This document shows, one piece after another, positions 50,612-63,134 of a stretch of DNA of 64,000 nucleotides (position 1 is the first letter of the stretch; every line of letters starts with the position of its first letter). Under the pieces are notes generated by a model. The model saw nothing but the letters and a program-made list of their open reading frames with translations, was not told the origin of the DNA and made no database searches. The stretch lies in the NCBI GenBank assembly GCA_050699975.1, contig JBOHGH010000008.1, positions 976 to 64,975 of the forward strand, written 5' to 3'. The translations under genes were made by a program, and so were the position numbers. This DNA is from Pseudonocardiaceae bacterium (GTDB lineage: Bacteria; Actinomycetota; Actinomycetes; Mycobacteriales; Pseudonocardiaceae).

Positions 50612-50704
50612 ATGGCTCACCAGGCTGTGATCCCTAAAATGTGCTGCGACCGTGGGGGTAATTTCCTTCTCCGTGGATACGGACAGAGATTGGTGGTGTA
50701 CGCG

Positions 50705-52114
50705 GTGACTGAGCCGGGACAGCCGGGTGTGGATGTTGATAGTGAGCGGCAGCAGTTGAGTTTGGCTACGGCGGCGGCCCGTAATTTGGCGACGACGACC
50801 AAGTCCGTGCCGCAGATGCAGGGAATCACGTCGCGGTGGTTGTTGCGGGTACTGCCGTGGGTGGAGGCCGCCGGCGGGGCTTTCCGGGTGAACCGCCGAT
50901 TGACTTATGCGGTGGGTGACGGGCGGGTCACATTCACCACGGAGGGCGCCGAGGTGCGGGTCGTTCCCGAGGAGCTGCGTGAGTTGGCGGTGCTGCGCGG
51001 TCTTGAGGACAAGCAGATACTGGGTGCGTTGGCGGACCGGTTCGCGCAGCGGGAGTTCGAGGCCGGCAACACGATCGTGCAGGAAGGTCAGCCGGCTGAT
51101 CAGGTGTTTTTGATCGCCCATGGGAAGGTCAACAAGATCGGCCCCGGAGAGTTCGGTGATCCGACGGTATTGGGTACCTTGTCCGATGGTGATTATTTCG
51201 GTGTGTGGGAGTTGGTGGAGTCCAACGACACGTGGGCATACAGCGTGCGAGCGGTAACTCCGTGTACGGTGCTCGCGTTGTCCCAGCAGGCCTTCGAGGA
51301 AGTCGTCGGCCAGCACCCGGAGTTGCGGGCCCAGGTTGAGCGGTTCCAGGCATTGCTCCGACAGTCGCAGACCGAACACGGCGAGGCCGACATCGACCTG
51401 AGCGCGGGCCTAGCGCAGGAGTCGGACGTGGCGGGGACCTACGTCGACTACGAGATCAAGCCCCGGGAGTATGAGCTCAGCGTGGCGCAGACCGTGTTGC
51501 GGGTGCACACTCGGGTTGCGGATCTGTACAACAATCCGATGAACCAGGTCGAAGAGCAGCTGCGGCTGACCATCGAGGCGCTGCGGGAACGCCAAGAAAA
51601 CGAACTGATGAACAACCGTGACTTCGGGCTGCTGCACAACGCCGACTTCTCCCAGCGCATCAGCACCCGCACTGGACCCCCCACCCCTGATGACCTCGAC
51701 GAACTTCTGGCCACCGTGTGGAAAGATCCGGACGTTTTCCTGGCCCATCCCCGCACCATCGCCGCGTTCGGTCGGGAATGTAACAGCCGGGGCATCTACC
51801 CGCAGAGCGTCGAGATCAACGGCCACATGATGCCCGCCTGGCGAGGTATACCCGTCCTTCCCTGCAGCAAGATCCCCATCAGCAAGACCCGCACCAGTTC
51901 AATTTTGCTGCTCCGCACCGGTTTGGAGAAGCAAGGTGTGATCGGTCTGCACCAGACCGGCATCCCCGATGAGGTTCAGCCCGGGCTGAATGTCCGCTTC
52001 ATGGGTGTCGACGAAAAGGCGATCACTTCCTATCTGGTCAGCGCCTACTACTCCGCAGCCGTCATGGTCCCCGACGCACTCGGCATCCTCGAAAACATCG
52101 AAATCGGGCGGTAA
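50705..52114 (+). CDS. cNMP-binding EshA/Cnb-like protein = Family 2B encapsulin-type shell protein, copy 1
   Basis: CAP-type cNMP-binding segment ([34 protein letters not shown]...DGDYFG...[12 protein letters not shown]) embedded in a larger conserved fold ([23 protein letters not shown]...[25 protein letters not shown]). GTG 50705 aligns with the start of copy 2. ORF open from 50612. Confidence 0.75.
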
Positions 52115-52150
52115 AGCGAGGAGCAGACACCGGGAAGGTTGGGCCAGGAC

Positions 52151-59269: not shown

Positions 59270-60229
59270 ATGTCGGTCACCGCAAACAGCCCCGCTGGAG
59301 CCCGCACCGTCCTGCTCGCCTCGCCTCGGTCGTTCTGCGCCGGGGTCGAACGTGCCATTGCCGTCGTGGAGCAACTGCTGGACCAACGGAGCGACCCGAT
59401 CTATGTGCGCAAGCAGATCGTGCACAACATCCACGTGGTGGCCGATCTCCAGGCGCGCGGCGCAGTGTTCGTCGACGAGCTGGACGACGTTCCCGACAAG
59501 GCCACGGTGGTGTTCTCTGCCCACGGGGTGTCACCGGCGGTGCAGGCTGAGGCGGCAGACCGGGGGCTGGAGGTGATCGACGCGACGTGCCCGCTGGTGA
59601 CCAAGGTGCATGCCGAGGCCCGGCGGTTCGCCGCCCGCGGTGACACCGTGGTCCTGATCGGCCACGCCGGGCACGAGGAGGTCGAAGGCACCTTGGGTGA
59701 GGCGCCGGATCAGACGGTTCTGGTGCAGACTGCCGACGAGGTCGCGGAGCTGGAGGTCACCGACCCGGCACGGGTGTCGTATCTGACGCAGACCACCCTG
59801 GCTGCGGACGAGACCACCGAGATCGTCGAGGCGCTGCGGGCCCGGTTCCCGGCGCTGCGGAGCCCGGGGTCCGACGATATCTGTTACGCCACGACGAACC
59901 GCCAGGATGCGCTCAAGGCCATCGCCGAAGAGTCGGATCTGGTGCTCGTGGTCGGTTCGGCGAACTCCTCCAACTCGGTGCGGCTGGTGGAACTCGCGAA
60001 CCGCCACGGCATCCCCAGCTACCTCATCGACGACCCCAGCGACATCCGCCCCGAATGGCTGGACGGGGTTGGGGTGGTCGGGTTGACCGCGGGTGCCTCG
60101 GCCCCACCCCGGCTGGTCGAGGCTGTCATTGCCGCCCTGGCCGAGCTGGGACCGGTCACCGTGGTTGAACGCGAGACCACCCGCGAGACCGTCCACTTCA
60201 CCCTGCCCGCCGCGGTGCGGCGATCGTGA
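59270..60229 (+). CDS. ispH: 4-hydroxy-3-methylbut-2-enyl diphosphate reductase
   Basis: [44 protein letters not shown]. Confidence 0.92.
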
Positions 60230-62016
60230 GCCTGCTCGGCCGCATCACCGGGCCAGCCGACCTCACCGGACTGTCCACCGCGGCTCTTGCTGTGCTGGCC
60301 GAGGAAATCCGCGCCTTTCTGATTGACAAGGTTTCCGGCGCCGGCGGGCACCTGGGACCGAACCTGGGTGCAGTCGAGTTGACCATCGCCGTGCACCGGG
60401 TGTTCGACTCACCCCAGGACGTCCTGCTGTTCGACACCGGGCATCAGGCCTACGTACACAAGATCCTCACCGGCCGGTGCGCCGAGTTCGACTCCCTGCG
60501 CCAAGCCGGCGGTCTGTCCGGCTACCCGTCCCGGGCCGAGTCCGTCCACGACGTCATCGAGAACTCGCACGCCTCCACCGCCCTGTCCTACGCCGACGGC
60601 CTGGCCAAGGCGTTCGCGCTGCGGGGCGGCGCCAACCGGCGGGTCGTCGCGATCGTCGGCGACGGGGCGCTGACCGGCGGCATGTGCTGGGAAGCGCTCA
60701 ACAACATCGGCGCGGCCCCGGACCGGCCCGTGATCGTCGTGCTCAACGACAATGGTCGCTCCTACTCACCCACCGTCGGTGGGCTCGCCCGCCACCTCGC
60801 TGAACTGCGTCAATCCAGTGTGGACCGGCGCACGCTGTTCGAGGATCTCGGGCTGGACTACCTCGGACCGGTCGACGGGCATGACCTCACCGACGTCGAG
60901 AACGCCCTGCGACGGGCCAGCAAGCTGAGCCGTCCCGTCGTGGTGCACTGCATCACCCGCAAGGGCAAGGGGTACCCGCCGGCCGAGCAGGACGAGGTCG
61001 ACTGCCTGCACACCGTCGGCGTCATCGATCCCAGCACCGGCTGCCCCCGCTCGGTCGGCAAGCCGACCTGGACCTCGGTGTTCGCCGAGGAGATCACCGC
61101 GATCGGCGCCGACCGTGACGACGTGGTGTGCCTGACCGCGGCGATGCGCCACCCCACCGGCCTCGGCACCTTCGCCGCGAGGTTCCCGCACCGGGTGTTC
61201 GATGTCGGGATCGCCGAGCAGCACGCCGTCACCTCCGCCGCCGGGCTAGCCCTCGGCGGCCTGCACCCCGTGGTCGCCGTCTACTCCACGTTCTTGAGCC
61301 GGGCCTTCGACCAACTGCTCATGGACGTCGCCCTGCACCAGCTACCGGTCACCTTCGTGCTGGATCGGGCCGGGATCACCGGGCCGGACGGGCCCAGTCA
61401 CCACGGCATGTGGGACGCCTCGGTCCTGCCGGTCGTGCCCGGCCTGCGTCTTGCCGCGCCCCGGGACTGTGCACGGCTGCGCGAACTGCTTCGCGAAGCC
61501 GTCGACACCGCCGACGGGCCCACCGTGATCCGCTACCCGAAGGCCACCGCAGGTCCGGACATCCCCGCCATCGGCAGGGTCGGGCAGTGCGACATCCTCC
61601 GTGACGACCCCGCTGCGGTGGGTTTGCTGGTCGCCGTCGGATCGCTGGCCGGGCCCTGCCTGGCCGCTGCTGATGAGCTCGCCGCCCACGACGTGCCGGT
61701 CACCGTGATCGACCCGCGCTGGATCGCGCCGCTGGACCCGGCTCTGCTCAGGATGGCGGGCGCGCACCGCCTAGTGCTGACCGTCGAGGAAACCACCACC
61801 ACCGGAGCGCTCGGCGCCCGGATCGCCCAGGCGCTGGCCGCGGCCGGAGCGGACACCTGTGCAGCCACCTTCGCCCTGCCGCCCCGGTTCCTGCCGCACG
61901 CCTCGCGCGATCAGATCCTGCGCGCTCACGGCCTGGATGCGGCCGGCATCGCCACCGCCGTCCTCAAACGGCTCGCCAGCACACACCGGGGGAAGGTCAC
62001 TTCCAAGGAGATGTGA
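60226..62016 (+). CDS. dxs: 1-deoxy-D-xylulose-5-phosphate synthase
   Basis: [42 protein letters not shown]. The start overlaps the ispH stop (GTGA). Confidence 0.92.
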
Positions 62017-63134
62017 TGACAACTGTCGAACTGGGCATGCCGGCACCACCGAGCCAGCCGGCTCTGCGGCGCCGAGCATCCCGCCAGGTCATGGTCGGCG
62101 GCGTGCCCGTCGGCGGCGACGCACCCGTCTCGGTCCAGTCCATGACCACCACCCGCACCTGCGACATCGACGCCACGCTGCAACAGATCGCCGAGCTCAC
62201 CGCGACCGGTTGCCAGATCGTGCGGGTCGCGGTCCCCAGCCAGGACGACGCCGACGCGCTGGCTGCGATCGCCGCCAAGTCGCAGATCCCGGTCATCGCC
62301 GACATCCACTTCCAACCCCGATACGTCTTCGCCGCCATCGACGCCGGCTGCGCCGCGGTCCGCGTCAACCCCGGCAACATCAAGAAGTTCGACGACAAGG
62401 TCGAACAGATCGCTGCGGCCGCCGCCGGCGCGGGTGTGCCGATCCGCATCGGGGTCAACGCCGGCTCCCTGGACCCCCGGCTGCTGGCCAAACACGGCCA
62501 CGCCACCCCCGAAGCGCTGGTCGAATCCGCGTTGTGGGAATGCTCCCTGTTCGAAGAGCACGGGTTCCGCGACATCAAGATCTCCGTCAAACACCACGAC
62601 CCGCTCGTCATGATCGCCGCCTACCGGCAGCTGGCGCAGCGCTGCGACTACCCGTTACACCTCGGCGTCACCGAGGCTGGACCACGCTTCCAGGGCACCA
62701 TCAAGTCCGCCGTGGCCTTCGGTGTCCTGCTCGCCGAGGGGATCGGCGACACCATCCGGGTGTCGCTGTCCGCCCCACCCGTCGAGGAAGTGAAGGTCGG
62801 CAACCAGATCCTCGAATCCCTCGGCCTGCGCCCCCGCCAACTGGAGATCGTGTCCTGCCCCTCCTGCGGGCGCGCCCAGGTCGACGTCTACACCCTCGCC
62901 GAGCAAGTCACCGCTGCGTTCGACGGCTTCCCCGTCCCGCTGCGCGTCGCCGTCATGGGCTGTGTCGTCAACGGCCCCGGCGAAGCCCGCGAAGCCGACC
63001 TCGGCGTCTCCGCCGGCAACGGCAAGGGCCAGATCTTCGTCCGCGGCAAGGTCATCAAGACCGTCCCGGAAAGCGAGATCGTCCAAACCCTCATCGACGA
63101 AGCCCTCCAAAGAGACTGGTCAAGTCCGTCCTGA
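62013..63134 (+). CDS. ispG: 4-hydroxy-3-methylbut-2-en-1-yl diphosphate synthase (flavodoxin)
   Basis: [44 protein letters not shown] overlap with the dxs stop. Confidence 0.92.

Follow-up and report, generated by a model that had tools for sequence, protein, structure and literature searches.

A two-shell Family 2B encapsulin locus with geosmin synthase-type and 2-methylisoborneol synthase-type cyclases in a Pseudonocardiaceae bacterium

Introduction

Family 2B encapsulins are established as enclosures for the synthases of 2-methylisoborneol (2-MIB) as well as geosmin, and two shell paralogues are known to form mixed shells. Here we analyse a locus of this kind in a 64,000-nucleotide stretch of DNA from a Pseudonocardiaceae bacterium (hereafter the window; GenBank assembly GCA_050699975.1, contig JBOHGH010000008.1, positions 976 to 64,975 of the forward strand). 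Nine plus-strand genes at 50705-63134 encode, in order: a first shell protein (Enc1); a two-domain geosmin synthase-type cyclase (GeoA); a 2-MIB synthase (2-MIBS)-type cyclase; a geranyl diphosphate (GPP) 2-C-methyltransferase (MT); a second shell protein (Enc2); a polyprenyl synthase (prenyl transferase, PT); and the methylerythritol phosphate (MEP) pathway enzymes IspH, Dxs, and IspG. The locus is a well-preserved example of the described two-shell terpene encapsulin system. As a whole it is best explained, at a probability of about 0.75, as an operon that would be activated by a LuxR/LAL regulator and would yield a mixed T=1 shell loaded with both cyclases, with precursor enzymes in the cytosol and with geosmin and a C11 terpenoid as the output.

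Family 2B was defined by Andreas and Giessen in 2021, whose survey found that operons often contain two shells of about 60% identity (PMC8346489). The same survey listed 165 systems with both cyclases and PTs, observed that methyltransferases accompany 2-MIBS-like cyclases, and found precursor-synthesis genes enriched in PT operons and in combined terpene cyclase (TC) and PT operons. It also identified a cargo-loading consensus, GPTGLGT(SAAR), also written GPT/NGLGTSAAR, in disordered regions of both cyclase classes. A later search found 299 systems that join GeoA to a Family 2B shell, 65% of them with two shell genes (bioRxiv 10.64898/2026.07.21.739788); for all Family 2B operons, published surveys give 21%.

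Individual systems have since been characterised. The Streptomyces griseus shell EshA (Sg Enc) carries 2-MIBS as cargo (PMC11550324). A mixed two-protomer shell from Streptomyces lydicus has been solved, in a study that also described the TC/PT operon type, with TC between the two shell genes and PT immediately after Enc2, and the diagnostic motifs TVWK (Enc1) and RRRK (Enc2) (PMC12407261). GeoA of Myxococcus xanthus loads into a two-component 2B shell through two peptides (bioRxiv 10.64898/2026.07.21.739788). Each of the two characterised two-component systems has one protomer that cannot assemble by itself, and the protomers mix stochastically (PMC12407261; bioRxiv 10.64898/2026.07.21.739788). 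Shell paralogues also bracket the MIB genes in the cyanobacterial cnbA-mtf-mtc-cnbB operon (PMC12159092).

With the TC/PT type (PMC12407261; PMC8346489) the present locus shares an actinobacterial host; two shell genes with a cyclic nucleotide monophosphate (cNMP)-binding fold and the TVWK and RRRK motifs; placement of cyclases between the shells and of PT directly after Enc2; and methyltransferase and precursor genes within the cluster. It differs in having two cyclase classes, GeoA-type and 2-MIBS-type, between the shells, and in an Enc2 whose motif 2 departs from that of S. lydicus Enc2. The operon characterised in S. lydicus is itself of another kind, the xylulose-kinase type, with no known cargo. 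The M. xanthus system likewise has two 2B shell genes beside a two-domain geosmin synthase; however, both lie downstream of geoA, the host belongs to another phylum, and the description of that cluster mentions neither a second cyclase nor a methyltransferase, a prenyl synthase, or MEP genes. The S. griseus operon (PMC11550324) shares a 2B shell in which Trp stands where cAMP binders have Arg; a 2-MIBS-type cyclase whose N-terminal loading domain is rich in Gly, Pro, and Ala; and an adjacent GPP 2-C-methyltransferase that lacks a loading peptide. That operon has a single shell gene, whereas this locus adds GeoA, PT, and three MEP genes. The likeness to the cyanobacterial operon (PMC12159092) is the pair of shell paralogues around MIB genes.

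A first-pass annotation of the window, made from the letters alone, singled out three features as unusual: two shell genes, both odorant pathways in one unit, and dedicated MEP genes. Two shell genes and MEP genes are in fact common in the published surveys. For the pairing, a search of published texts and supplement legends found no statement of GeoA-type and MIBS-type cyclases in one two-shell operon. Measured against the published statements found there, three elements go further: the conserved GeoA-type/MIBS-type cargo pairing; a palindromic operator candidate; and a loop-less Dxs.

The locus

Curated NCBIfam models give names to all nine genes; the two shells fall under "family 2B encapsulin shell protein", the two-domain cyclase under "family 2 encapsulin cargo protein terpene cyclase", and the single-domain cyclase under a second cargo-cyclase model. 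These are listed here with the regulator gene that precedes them.

48995-50575, plus strand: LuxR/LAL-type regulator with an AAA_16 ATPase and a GerE helix-turn-helix (Pfam AAA_16 5e-09, GerE 3e-14); candidate pathway regulator
50705-52114, plus strand (longest open reading frame from 50612): Enc1 (PF19307 5.6e-136, PF00027 1.6e-17; encap_f2b 768.6 bits, cut-off 400)
52151-54388, plus strand (alternative TTG start 52139): GeoA-type two-domain cyclase (PF19086 twice; f2_encap_cargo3 1216 bits, cut-off 1200)
54427-55755, plus strand: 2-MIBS-type single-domain cyclase with a disordered N-terminal loading domain (PF19086 4.6e-28; f2_encap_cargo2 518.6 bits, cut-off 400)
55822-56676, plus strand: GPP 2-C-methyltransferase (GPPMT_Stmyces 544.5 bits, cut-off 400; PDB 4f84 368 bits, 3vc1 360 bits)
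56726-58156, plus strand (alternative ATG start 56732): Enc2 (PF19307 8.4e-140, PF00027 2.4e-14; encap_f2b 769.2 bits, cut-off 400)
58173-59240, plus strand: short-chain trans-polyprenyl diphosphate synthase (PF00348 2.5e-57; f2_encap_cargo4 491.6 bits, cut-off 450; PDB 3nf2 292 bits)
59270-60229, plus strand: IspH (LytB), 4-hydroxy-3-methylbut-2-enyl diphosphate (HMBPP) reductase (PF02401 2e-96; NF002189 449 bits, cut-off 444)
60226-62016, plus strand: Dxs, 1-deoxy-D-xylulose 5-phosphate (DXP) synthase, loop-less variant (TIGR00204 566 bits)
62013/62016-63134, plus strand: IspG (GcpE), HMBPP synthase (PF04551 4.5e-142; NF001540 528 bits)

Gene content and order are as the first-pass annotation gave them. 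That annotation described ten tightly spaced, co-directional genes within 50612-63134. Spacing and direction hold; the range itself contains nine genes, and the tenth co-directional, syntenic gene, the LuxR/LAL regulator, lies outside it. Its reading of the IspH/Dxs junction as GTGA at 60226-60229, where the Dxs start overlaps the IspH stop, was confirmed from the letters. The Dxs/IspG junction at 62013-62016, reported there as ATGA, also reads GTGA, within ATG-TGA-TGA, and leaves two possible IspG starts: GTG 62013 (4-nucleotide overlap) or ATG 62016 (1-nucleotide overlap).

Because the genes lie only 16-66 nucleotides apart, two junctions overlap stop and start codons, and synteny is conserved, we infer that the nine genes are transcribed together. 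Terminator-like sites on the plus strand include none between genes of the block, and their total is no higher than in shuffled sequence. G+C content is lower over 51-58 kb (0.62-0.65) than in the flanks (about 0.70).

A scan with a profile of the cyclase (one genome per species) gave 44 loci, onto which the ten window proteins were mapped.

Shell proteins

Enc1 and Enc2 each combine an SrpI-like HK97-type domain with an inserted cyclic-nucleotide-binding domain (CBD) fold, the feature that sets Family 2B apart from Family 2A (Pfam PF19307 and PF00027); the PF00027 segment spans residues 147-234 of the long Enc1 reading frame and residues 119-209 of Enc2. Both match the solved Family 2B shells 9bix, 9bje, and 9bhu at 634-658 bits (Enc1 634-638; Enc2 658 to 9bix), and both also match the Family 2A protein SrpI (6x8m). 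On these matches the two are Family 2B encapsulin shell proteins, as the first-pass annotation had proposed for its two paralogues of about 470 residues. The profile check that it suggested, of whether these proteins have an HK97 fold, is answered by the scores to experimentally solved shells, and the curated shell models are also matched far above cut-off.

The two shells are 73% identical. Diagnostic motif 1 is TVWK in Enc1 and RRRK in Enc2, the published forms, and each is kept in every related locus readable at that position. Sequence comparison thus places Enc1 and Enc2 in two old shell lineages, and not in a recent duplication. Motif 2, a luminal A-domain loop, was compared with the S. 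lydicus forms (AVDFHGHSLP in Sl-Enc1, GAELHGTDVR in Sl-Enc2); in Enc1 it resembles the Sl-Enc1 form (xVxxxGHxxP). Cross-locus conservation of ...GGTGGTGnnnnnnGTGACTGAG favours GTG 50705 as the Enc1 start.

A mixed Enc1/Enc2 shell, an idea raised in the first-pass annotation, is plausible, because the diagnostic motif is present and two homologous systems are known to form mixed shells (PMC12407261; bioRxiv 10.64898/2026.07.21.739788). By analogy with those shells, assembly would be T=1 icosahedral.

The same annotation had suggested that the compartment is gated by cyclic nucleotides. This agrees with the classical view of EshA/Cnb proteins, in which the 470-residue proteins would be cyclic-nucleotide-responsive regulators or gates, and cyclic AMP (cAMP) or cyclic GMP (cGMP) on the CBD would control terpene output. 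Both shells do contain the Pfam cNMP_binding domain, with weak matches to CRP and Vfr, and the closed pore state reported for mixed M. xanthus shells makes some ligand gating conceivable. The binding site itself points the other way. Trp177 of Enc1 aligns with W176 of Sg Enc, which replaces the phosphate-binding Arg82 of CAP, and Enc2 has the same DTW. The phosphate-binding cassette of either shell contains no Arg or Lys, and the place of the cassette Glu (CAP E72) is taken by Val in Enc1 and by Asp in Enc2. Neither shell has a DNA-binding domain, the C-terminal half being the HK97-type shell domain.

Assays on homologues agree. The S. griseus shell showed no cAMP binding by differential scanning fluorimetry, cAMP-agarose, or cryo-electron microscopy, and its activity was unchanged by cAMP (PMC11550324); the CBD folds of the M. 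xanthus shell, a further point of likeness to this locus, also bind no cAMP (bioRxiv 10.64898/2026.07.21.739788). Cyclic-nucleotide gating of Enc1 and Enc2 is therefore not supported, given Trp in place of Arg, the cassette without Arg or Lys, and the published negatives, and we rejected it as an explanation; the regulator view as a whole is very improbable. The CBD folds probably bind some other ligand, or none, and are not cAMP or cGMP sensors.

Rfam family RF02735 (Sernc350, a 513-nucleotide antisense small RNA of Saccharopolyspora) matches the minus strand at 50742-51249 and 56768-57276, within the 5' halves of the two shell genes (115 and 109 bits; gathering score 50). The match is probably an opposite-strand echo of encapsulin protein-coding conservation; for Saccharopolyspora, it hints at antisense transcription of an EshA-type gene.

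Cyclases and loading peptides

GeoA comprises two class I cyclase domains, each with both metal-binding motifs (DDHFLE and NDLFSYQRE in the N-terminal domain; DDYFP and NDIFSYQKE in the C-terminal domain). The N-terminal domain matches Streptomyces coelicolor geosmin synthase (5dw7) at 496 bits. The enzyme is predicted to convert farnesyl diphosphate (FPP) to geosmin.

The single-domain cyclase (motifs DDHFLDE and NDLYSMAKE) shows the 2-MIBS architecture: one cyclase domain, a disordered N-terminal domain, and an adjacent GPP 2-C-methyltransferase. Its substrate is very likely 2-methyl-GPP, and its product probably a C11 methyl-monoterpenoid.

The loading peptide, GPxGLGTSAA, occurs in the GeoA linker, at the GeoA C-terminus, and in the N-terminal domain of the single-domain cyclase; one degenerate copy in the latter brings the number to four.

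53183-53215, plus strand: GeoA inter-domain loading peptide CLP1 (motif match; kept in orthologues)
54320-54352, plus strand: GeoA C-terminal loading peptide CLP2 (motif match; published CLP2 position)
54628-54660, plus strand: N-terminal loading peptide of the single-domain cyclase (motif match)
54739-54768, plus strand: degenerate second peptide of the single-domain cyclase, PTGLGPSAAW (motif match)

The peptide is kept in 28 of 30 GeoA orthologues and in 40 of 43 orthologues of the MIBS-type cyclase. None was found among the orthologues of PT (0/34), MT (0/41), IspH (0/19), or IspG (0/15). Because the peptide is confined to the cyclases, sequence predicts two cargoes, with the other five enzymes outside the shell. 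The first-pass annotation had named the cyclases as predicted cargo, which the published peptide and its conservation bear out. It had also described precursor supply, elongation, methylation, cyclases, and shells as packaged together; this is apt for the genes, and does not extend to PT, MT, IspH, Dxs, and IspG as proteins, none of which has a loading peptide.

A look-alike in Dxs, PTGLGTFAA (61153-61179), was considered as a cargo signal and rejected: it lies in a folded, family-conserved segment, where Mycobacterium tuberculosis DXS has PTGLTAFGQ. The loading-peptide form occurs in one of 22 Dxs sequences and is kept in no orthologue. We take it as coincidence.

Two loci, L009 and L016, encode an additional, distant single-domain cyclase (about 39-40% identity), also with a GPSGLGTSAA peptide. 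To judge from such sequences, the cargo repertoire around these shells can exceed two. Loci L019 and L032 have a weak GeoA-like match upstream of LuxR.

Precursor enzymes

PT has the two aspartate-rich motifs of its family, DDVLD (first) and DDLLG (second). Phe at position -5 before the DDxxD motif suggests a short-chain enzyme (C20 or shorter); for the closest structure, 3NF2, a literature search on chain length found nothing. PT has no N-terminal extension: residue 18 aligns with residue 10 of 3nf2, and the start cannot be moved upstream because the Enc2 stop is only 16 nucleotides away.

These properties bear on whether the shell encloses more than the cyclases. PT, and possibly MT, might also be encapsulated without a motif, so that elongation, methylation, and cyclisation would all take place inside. 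PT does belong to the NCBIfam "family 2 encapsulin cargo protein polyprenyl transferase", is always encoded directly after Enc2, and is of a class that published surveys count as putative cargo. The published proposal for PT loading, however, needs disordered N-termini of 50-100 residues, for which this PT, so close to the Enc2 stop, has no counterpart, and no PT orthologue carries the motif. In the characterised 2-MIB system, moreover, 2-MIBS is encapsulated and the methyltransferase was added separately in a coupled assay. PT was accordingly set aside as cargo and kept as a rival of low probability; this fuller metabolon is unlikely. We retain two encapsulated cyclases supplied from outside.

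IspH, Dxs, and IspG all score above their NCBIfam equivalog cut-offs, and the window holds no further MEP genes besides these three. Over its full length, Dxs (596 residues) aligns with the M. tuberculosis DXS that was engineered to lack a loop (8ogh/7a9h, 711 bits), but its alignment to the longer DXS chain 7a9g (666 residues) breaks into two pieces. The deletion, of a loop of about 38 residues around Dxs residues 195-205, is common to all in-cluster Dxs proteins of Pseudonocardiales; most in-cluster Dxs proteins of Acidimicrobiia retain the loop. The loop-less Dxs thus looks like a dedicated paralogue lineage. Terpenoid gene clusters with private MEP copies, such as the Streptomyces hopanoid cluster with its extra dxs and ispG, offer a parallel: there too dxs, ispG, and a prenyl synthase are encoded beside terpene cyclases, which raises precursor supply. 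Those clusters are not known to have an encapsulin shell, and Dxs here belongs to a conserved loop-less lineage.

Regulation

An orthologue of the LuxR/LAL regulator (54-93% identity) lies upstream of Enc1 in 18 related loci. Between LuxR and Enc1, the window contains two perfect palindromes of the form CCGTAG-N3-CTACGG, followed by a -10-like hexamer.

50570-50584, no strand assigned: distal palindrome CCGTAGAAACTACGG; candidate operator, overlapping the LuxR stop codon
50597-50611, no strand assigned: proximal palindrome CCGTAGTTTCTACGG; candidate operator, its centre about 31 nucleotides upstream of the -10-like hexamer
50635-50640, plus strand: -10-like hexamer TAAAAT, read directly; putative operon promoter

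Exact CCGTAG-N3-CTACGG copies occupy the equivalent position in 20 of 45 loci, in most cases as a pair. Copies are also found in three Acidimicrobiia loci (L024, L028, and L030), in divergent GeoA|MT or GeoA|Enc1 spacers. Pseudonocardiales loci share a conserved TAnnnT about 23 nucleotides after the proximal palindrome, the window form being TAAAAT. With transcription predicted to start near 50647, the proximal palindrome would be centred at about -43, where class II activators usually bind. From this arrangement, we infer that the operon is transcribed from a promoter at TAAAAT and that the palindromes serve the neighbouring LuxR/LAL protein as its operator.

The leader downstream of the -10-like box (50641-50690) is itself conserved, as GTGACCATGACACTAATGACTGTCAATGATGA in many loci and as GCGACCGTGGGGGTAAT in the window. 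Equivalent conserved 5' leaders occur in L002, L007, L011, L013, L018, L019, L027, and L032. An Rfam scan found no family that matches this leader.

Distribution

The exact proteins are encoded on a contig of NCBI assembly GCA_975256125.1, and the nearest cyclase relatives with a named source are labelled as metagenome-assembled genomes (MAGs) of Pseudonocardiaceae or Pseudonocardiales. The identical order LuxR-Enc1-GeoA-TC-MT-Enc2-PT-IspH-Dxs-IspG occurs in loci L003, L004, L007, L014, and L035, and in L013 without a LuxR match. In about 12 further loci, this order holds up to the end of the contig or fetched stretch; L012 and L016 reach IspG but have no Dxs match. The neighbourhood comparison proposed in the first-pass annotation thus recovers the same gene order from many uncultured Pseudonocardiales genomes. 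Because that order recurs in so many independent genomes, the arrangement is, on this comparison, not chance, and among the loci mapped, this cyclase clade normally has its geosmin- and MIB-type cyclases encoded together.

Variants also occur. The order Enc1-GeoA-Enc2-TC-MT-PT-IspH-Dxs-IspG is found in L006, L010, and L015. Acidimicrobiia MAGs have a rearranged TC-Enc1-GeoA-Enc2-PT-Dxs-MT, and a Thermomicrobiales MAG (L023) and one Acidimicrobiia MAG (L029) have a GeoA-less Enc1-Enc2-PT-Dxs-MT-TC. Reduced versions without GeoA are present in a few cultured genera (Saccharothrix, Actinokineospora, and Actinoplanes) and in an Actinophytocola MAG. Partial loci consist of Enc2-TC-MT-PT only (L008 and L021), Enc1-TC-MT only (L033), or GeoA-Enc2 only (L045).

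Such variants could also be read as signs of two separate compartments, an Enc1 shell for geosmin synthase and an Enc2 shell for the 2-MIBS-type cyclase, the operon being a fusion of geosmin and MIB modules. The modular order Enc1-GeoA-Enc2-TC-MT of L006, L010, and L015 and the four loci with one shell would fit this, as would the luminal motif 2 loop, in which Enc1 and Enc2 differ and for which a role in cargo choice has been proposed. Separate compartments are nevertheless improbable: the loading peptide is common to both cargoes; the shells are close in sequence; and in the known two-component systems, a lone protomer fails to assemble and the two mix stochastically. A single mixed shell for both cyclases is the reading that we carry forward.

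Judged by synteny, the conserved unit is LuxR plus the nine genes (48995-63134), because conservation of the flanks stops at the closest relative. Uncultured soil members of Pseudonocardiales and Acidimicrobiia probably supply both earthy odorants from one regulated unit, which gives the locus relevance to taste-and-odour ecology in soil and water.

Model

These results suggest the following sequence of events. The LuxR/LAL regulator would activate a single promoter just upstream of Enc1, probably through the paired palindromes, and the nine genes would be read onto one transcript. By homology to the S. lydicus, S. griseus, and M. xanthus shells, Enc1 and Enc2 would jointly build a mixed HK97-type T=1 shell, its CBD folds on the outside. 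Geosmin synthase and the 2-MIBS-type cyclase would enter the lumen by their loading peptides, presumably bound, as in homologues, at the three-fold pocket. MT, PT, Dxs, IspG, and IspH most likely stay in the cytosol, where they would raise MEP flux and supply GPP, 2-methyl-GPP, and FPP. Substrates would pass in through the large two-fold pores, and geosmin would leave the shell, as would a C11 methyl-monoterpenoid, either 2-MIB or a relative.

Several points weigh against this reading. First, assembly, loading, and co-transcription are all drawn from homologues and sequence. Second, a scan with the sigma-70 consensus gave zero promoter sites, so the promoter proposal rests on cross-locus conservation. 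Third, motif 2 of Enc2 is unlike its S. lydicus counterpart; among Enc2 orthologues, this loop is variable. Fourth, the modular-looking order Enc1-GeoA-Enc2-TC-MT also fits one shell per cyclase. Fifth, the words "encapsulin cargo" in the NCBIfam family name of PT make its exclusion from the shell uncertain. Finally, the single-domain cyclase is only 36-37% identical to characterised S. coelicolor 2-MIBS (3v1v, 175 bits), and its product is thus uncertain; 2-MIB itself is not secure for this reason. It is equally close to an uncharacterised S. lydicus synthase (4zq8), and the label "2-methylisoborneol synthase" on members of its clade is automatic annotation only. This deep-branching clade might make a C11 product other than 2-MIB.

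A further proposal is that one mixed Enc1/Enc2 shell co-packages the two cyclases through the same peptide and releases geosmin and a C11 methyl-terpenoid, under a LuxR/LAL switch that acts through the palindromes. We put this forward tentatively, at somewhat less than even odds; if true, it would describe a dual-cargo earthy-odour nanocompartment. Published work has proposed that a terpene encapsulin may naturally load several cargoes, but no experimental demonstration was found. The locus offers a compact natural test case for co-loading ratios of different cargoes; for the role of the second shell subunit; and for the CBD ligand, if any.

Flanking region

Neighbouring genes (Emb arabinosyltransferases, RPE65 oxygenase, TetR, and VWA/RCC1) were considered as members of the unit and rejected, being conserved only in the nearest relative. 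Directly upstream of the LuxR gene lie two tandem Emb-type arabinosyltransferases, of which the second is divergent (39039-42317 and 42912-46322, plus strand); a carotenoid cleavage oxygenase of the RPE65 family (46328-47839, plus strand); and a TetR regulator (47802-48518, minus strand). Synteny of the Emb, RPE65, and TetR genes with the operon was found in no other genomes. A 1346-residue nSTAND1 NTPase fused to about 14 WD40 repeats (19927-23967, minus strand) is unrelated to the terpene operon. The sole tRNA in the window is a tRNA-Ser with anticodon TGA (27877-27963, minus strand).

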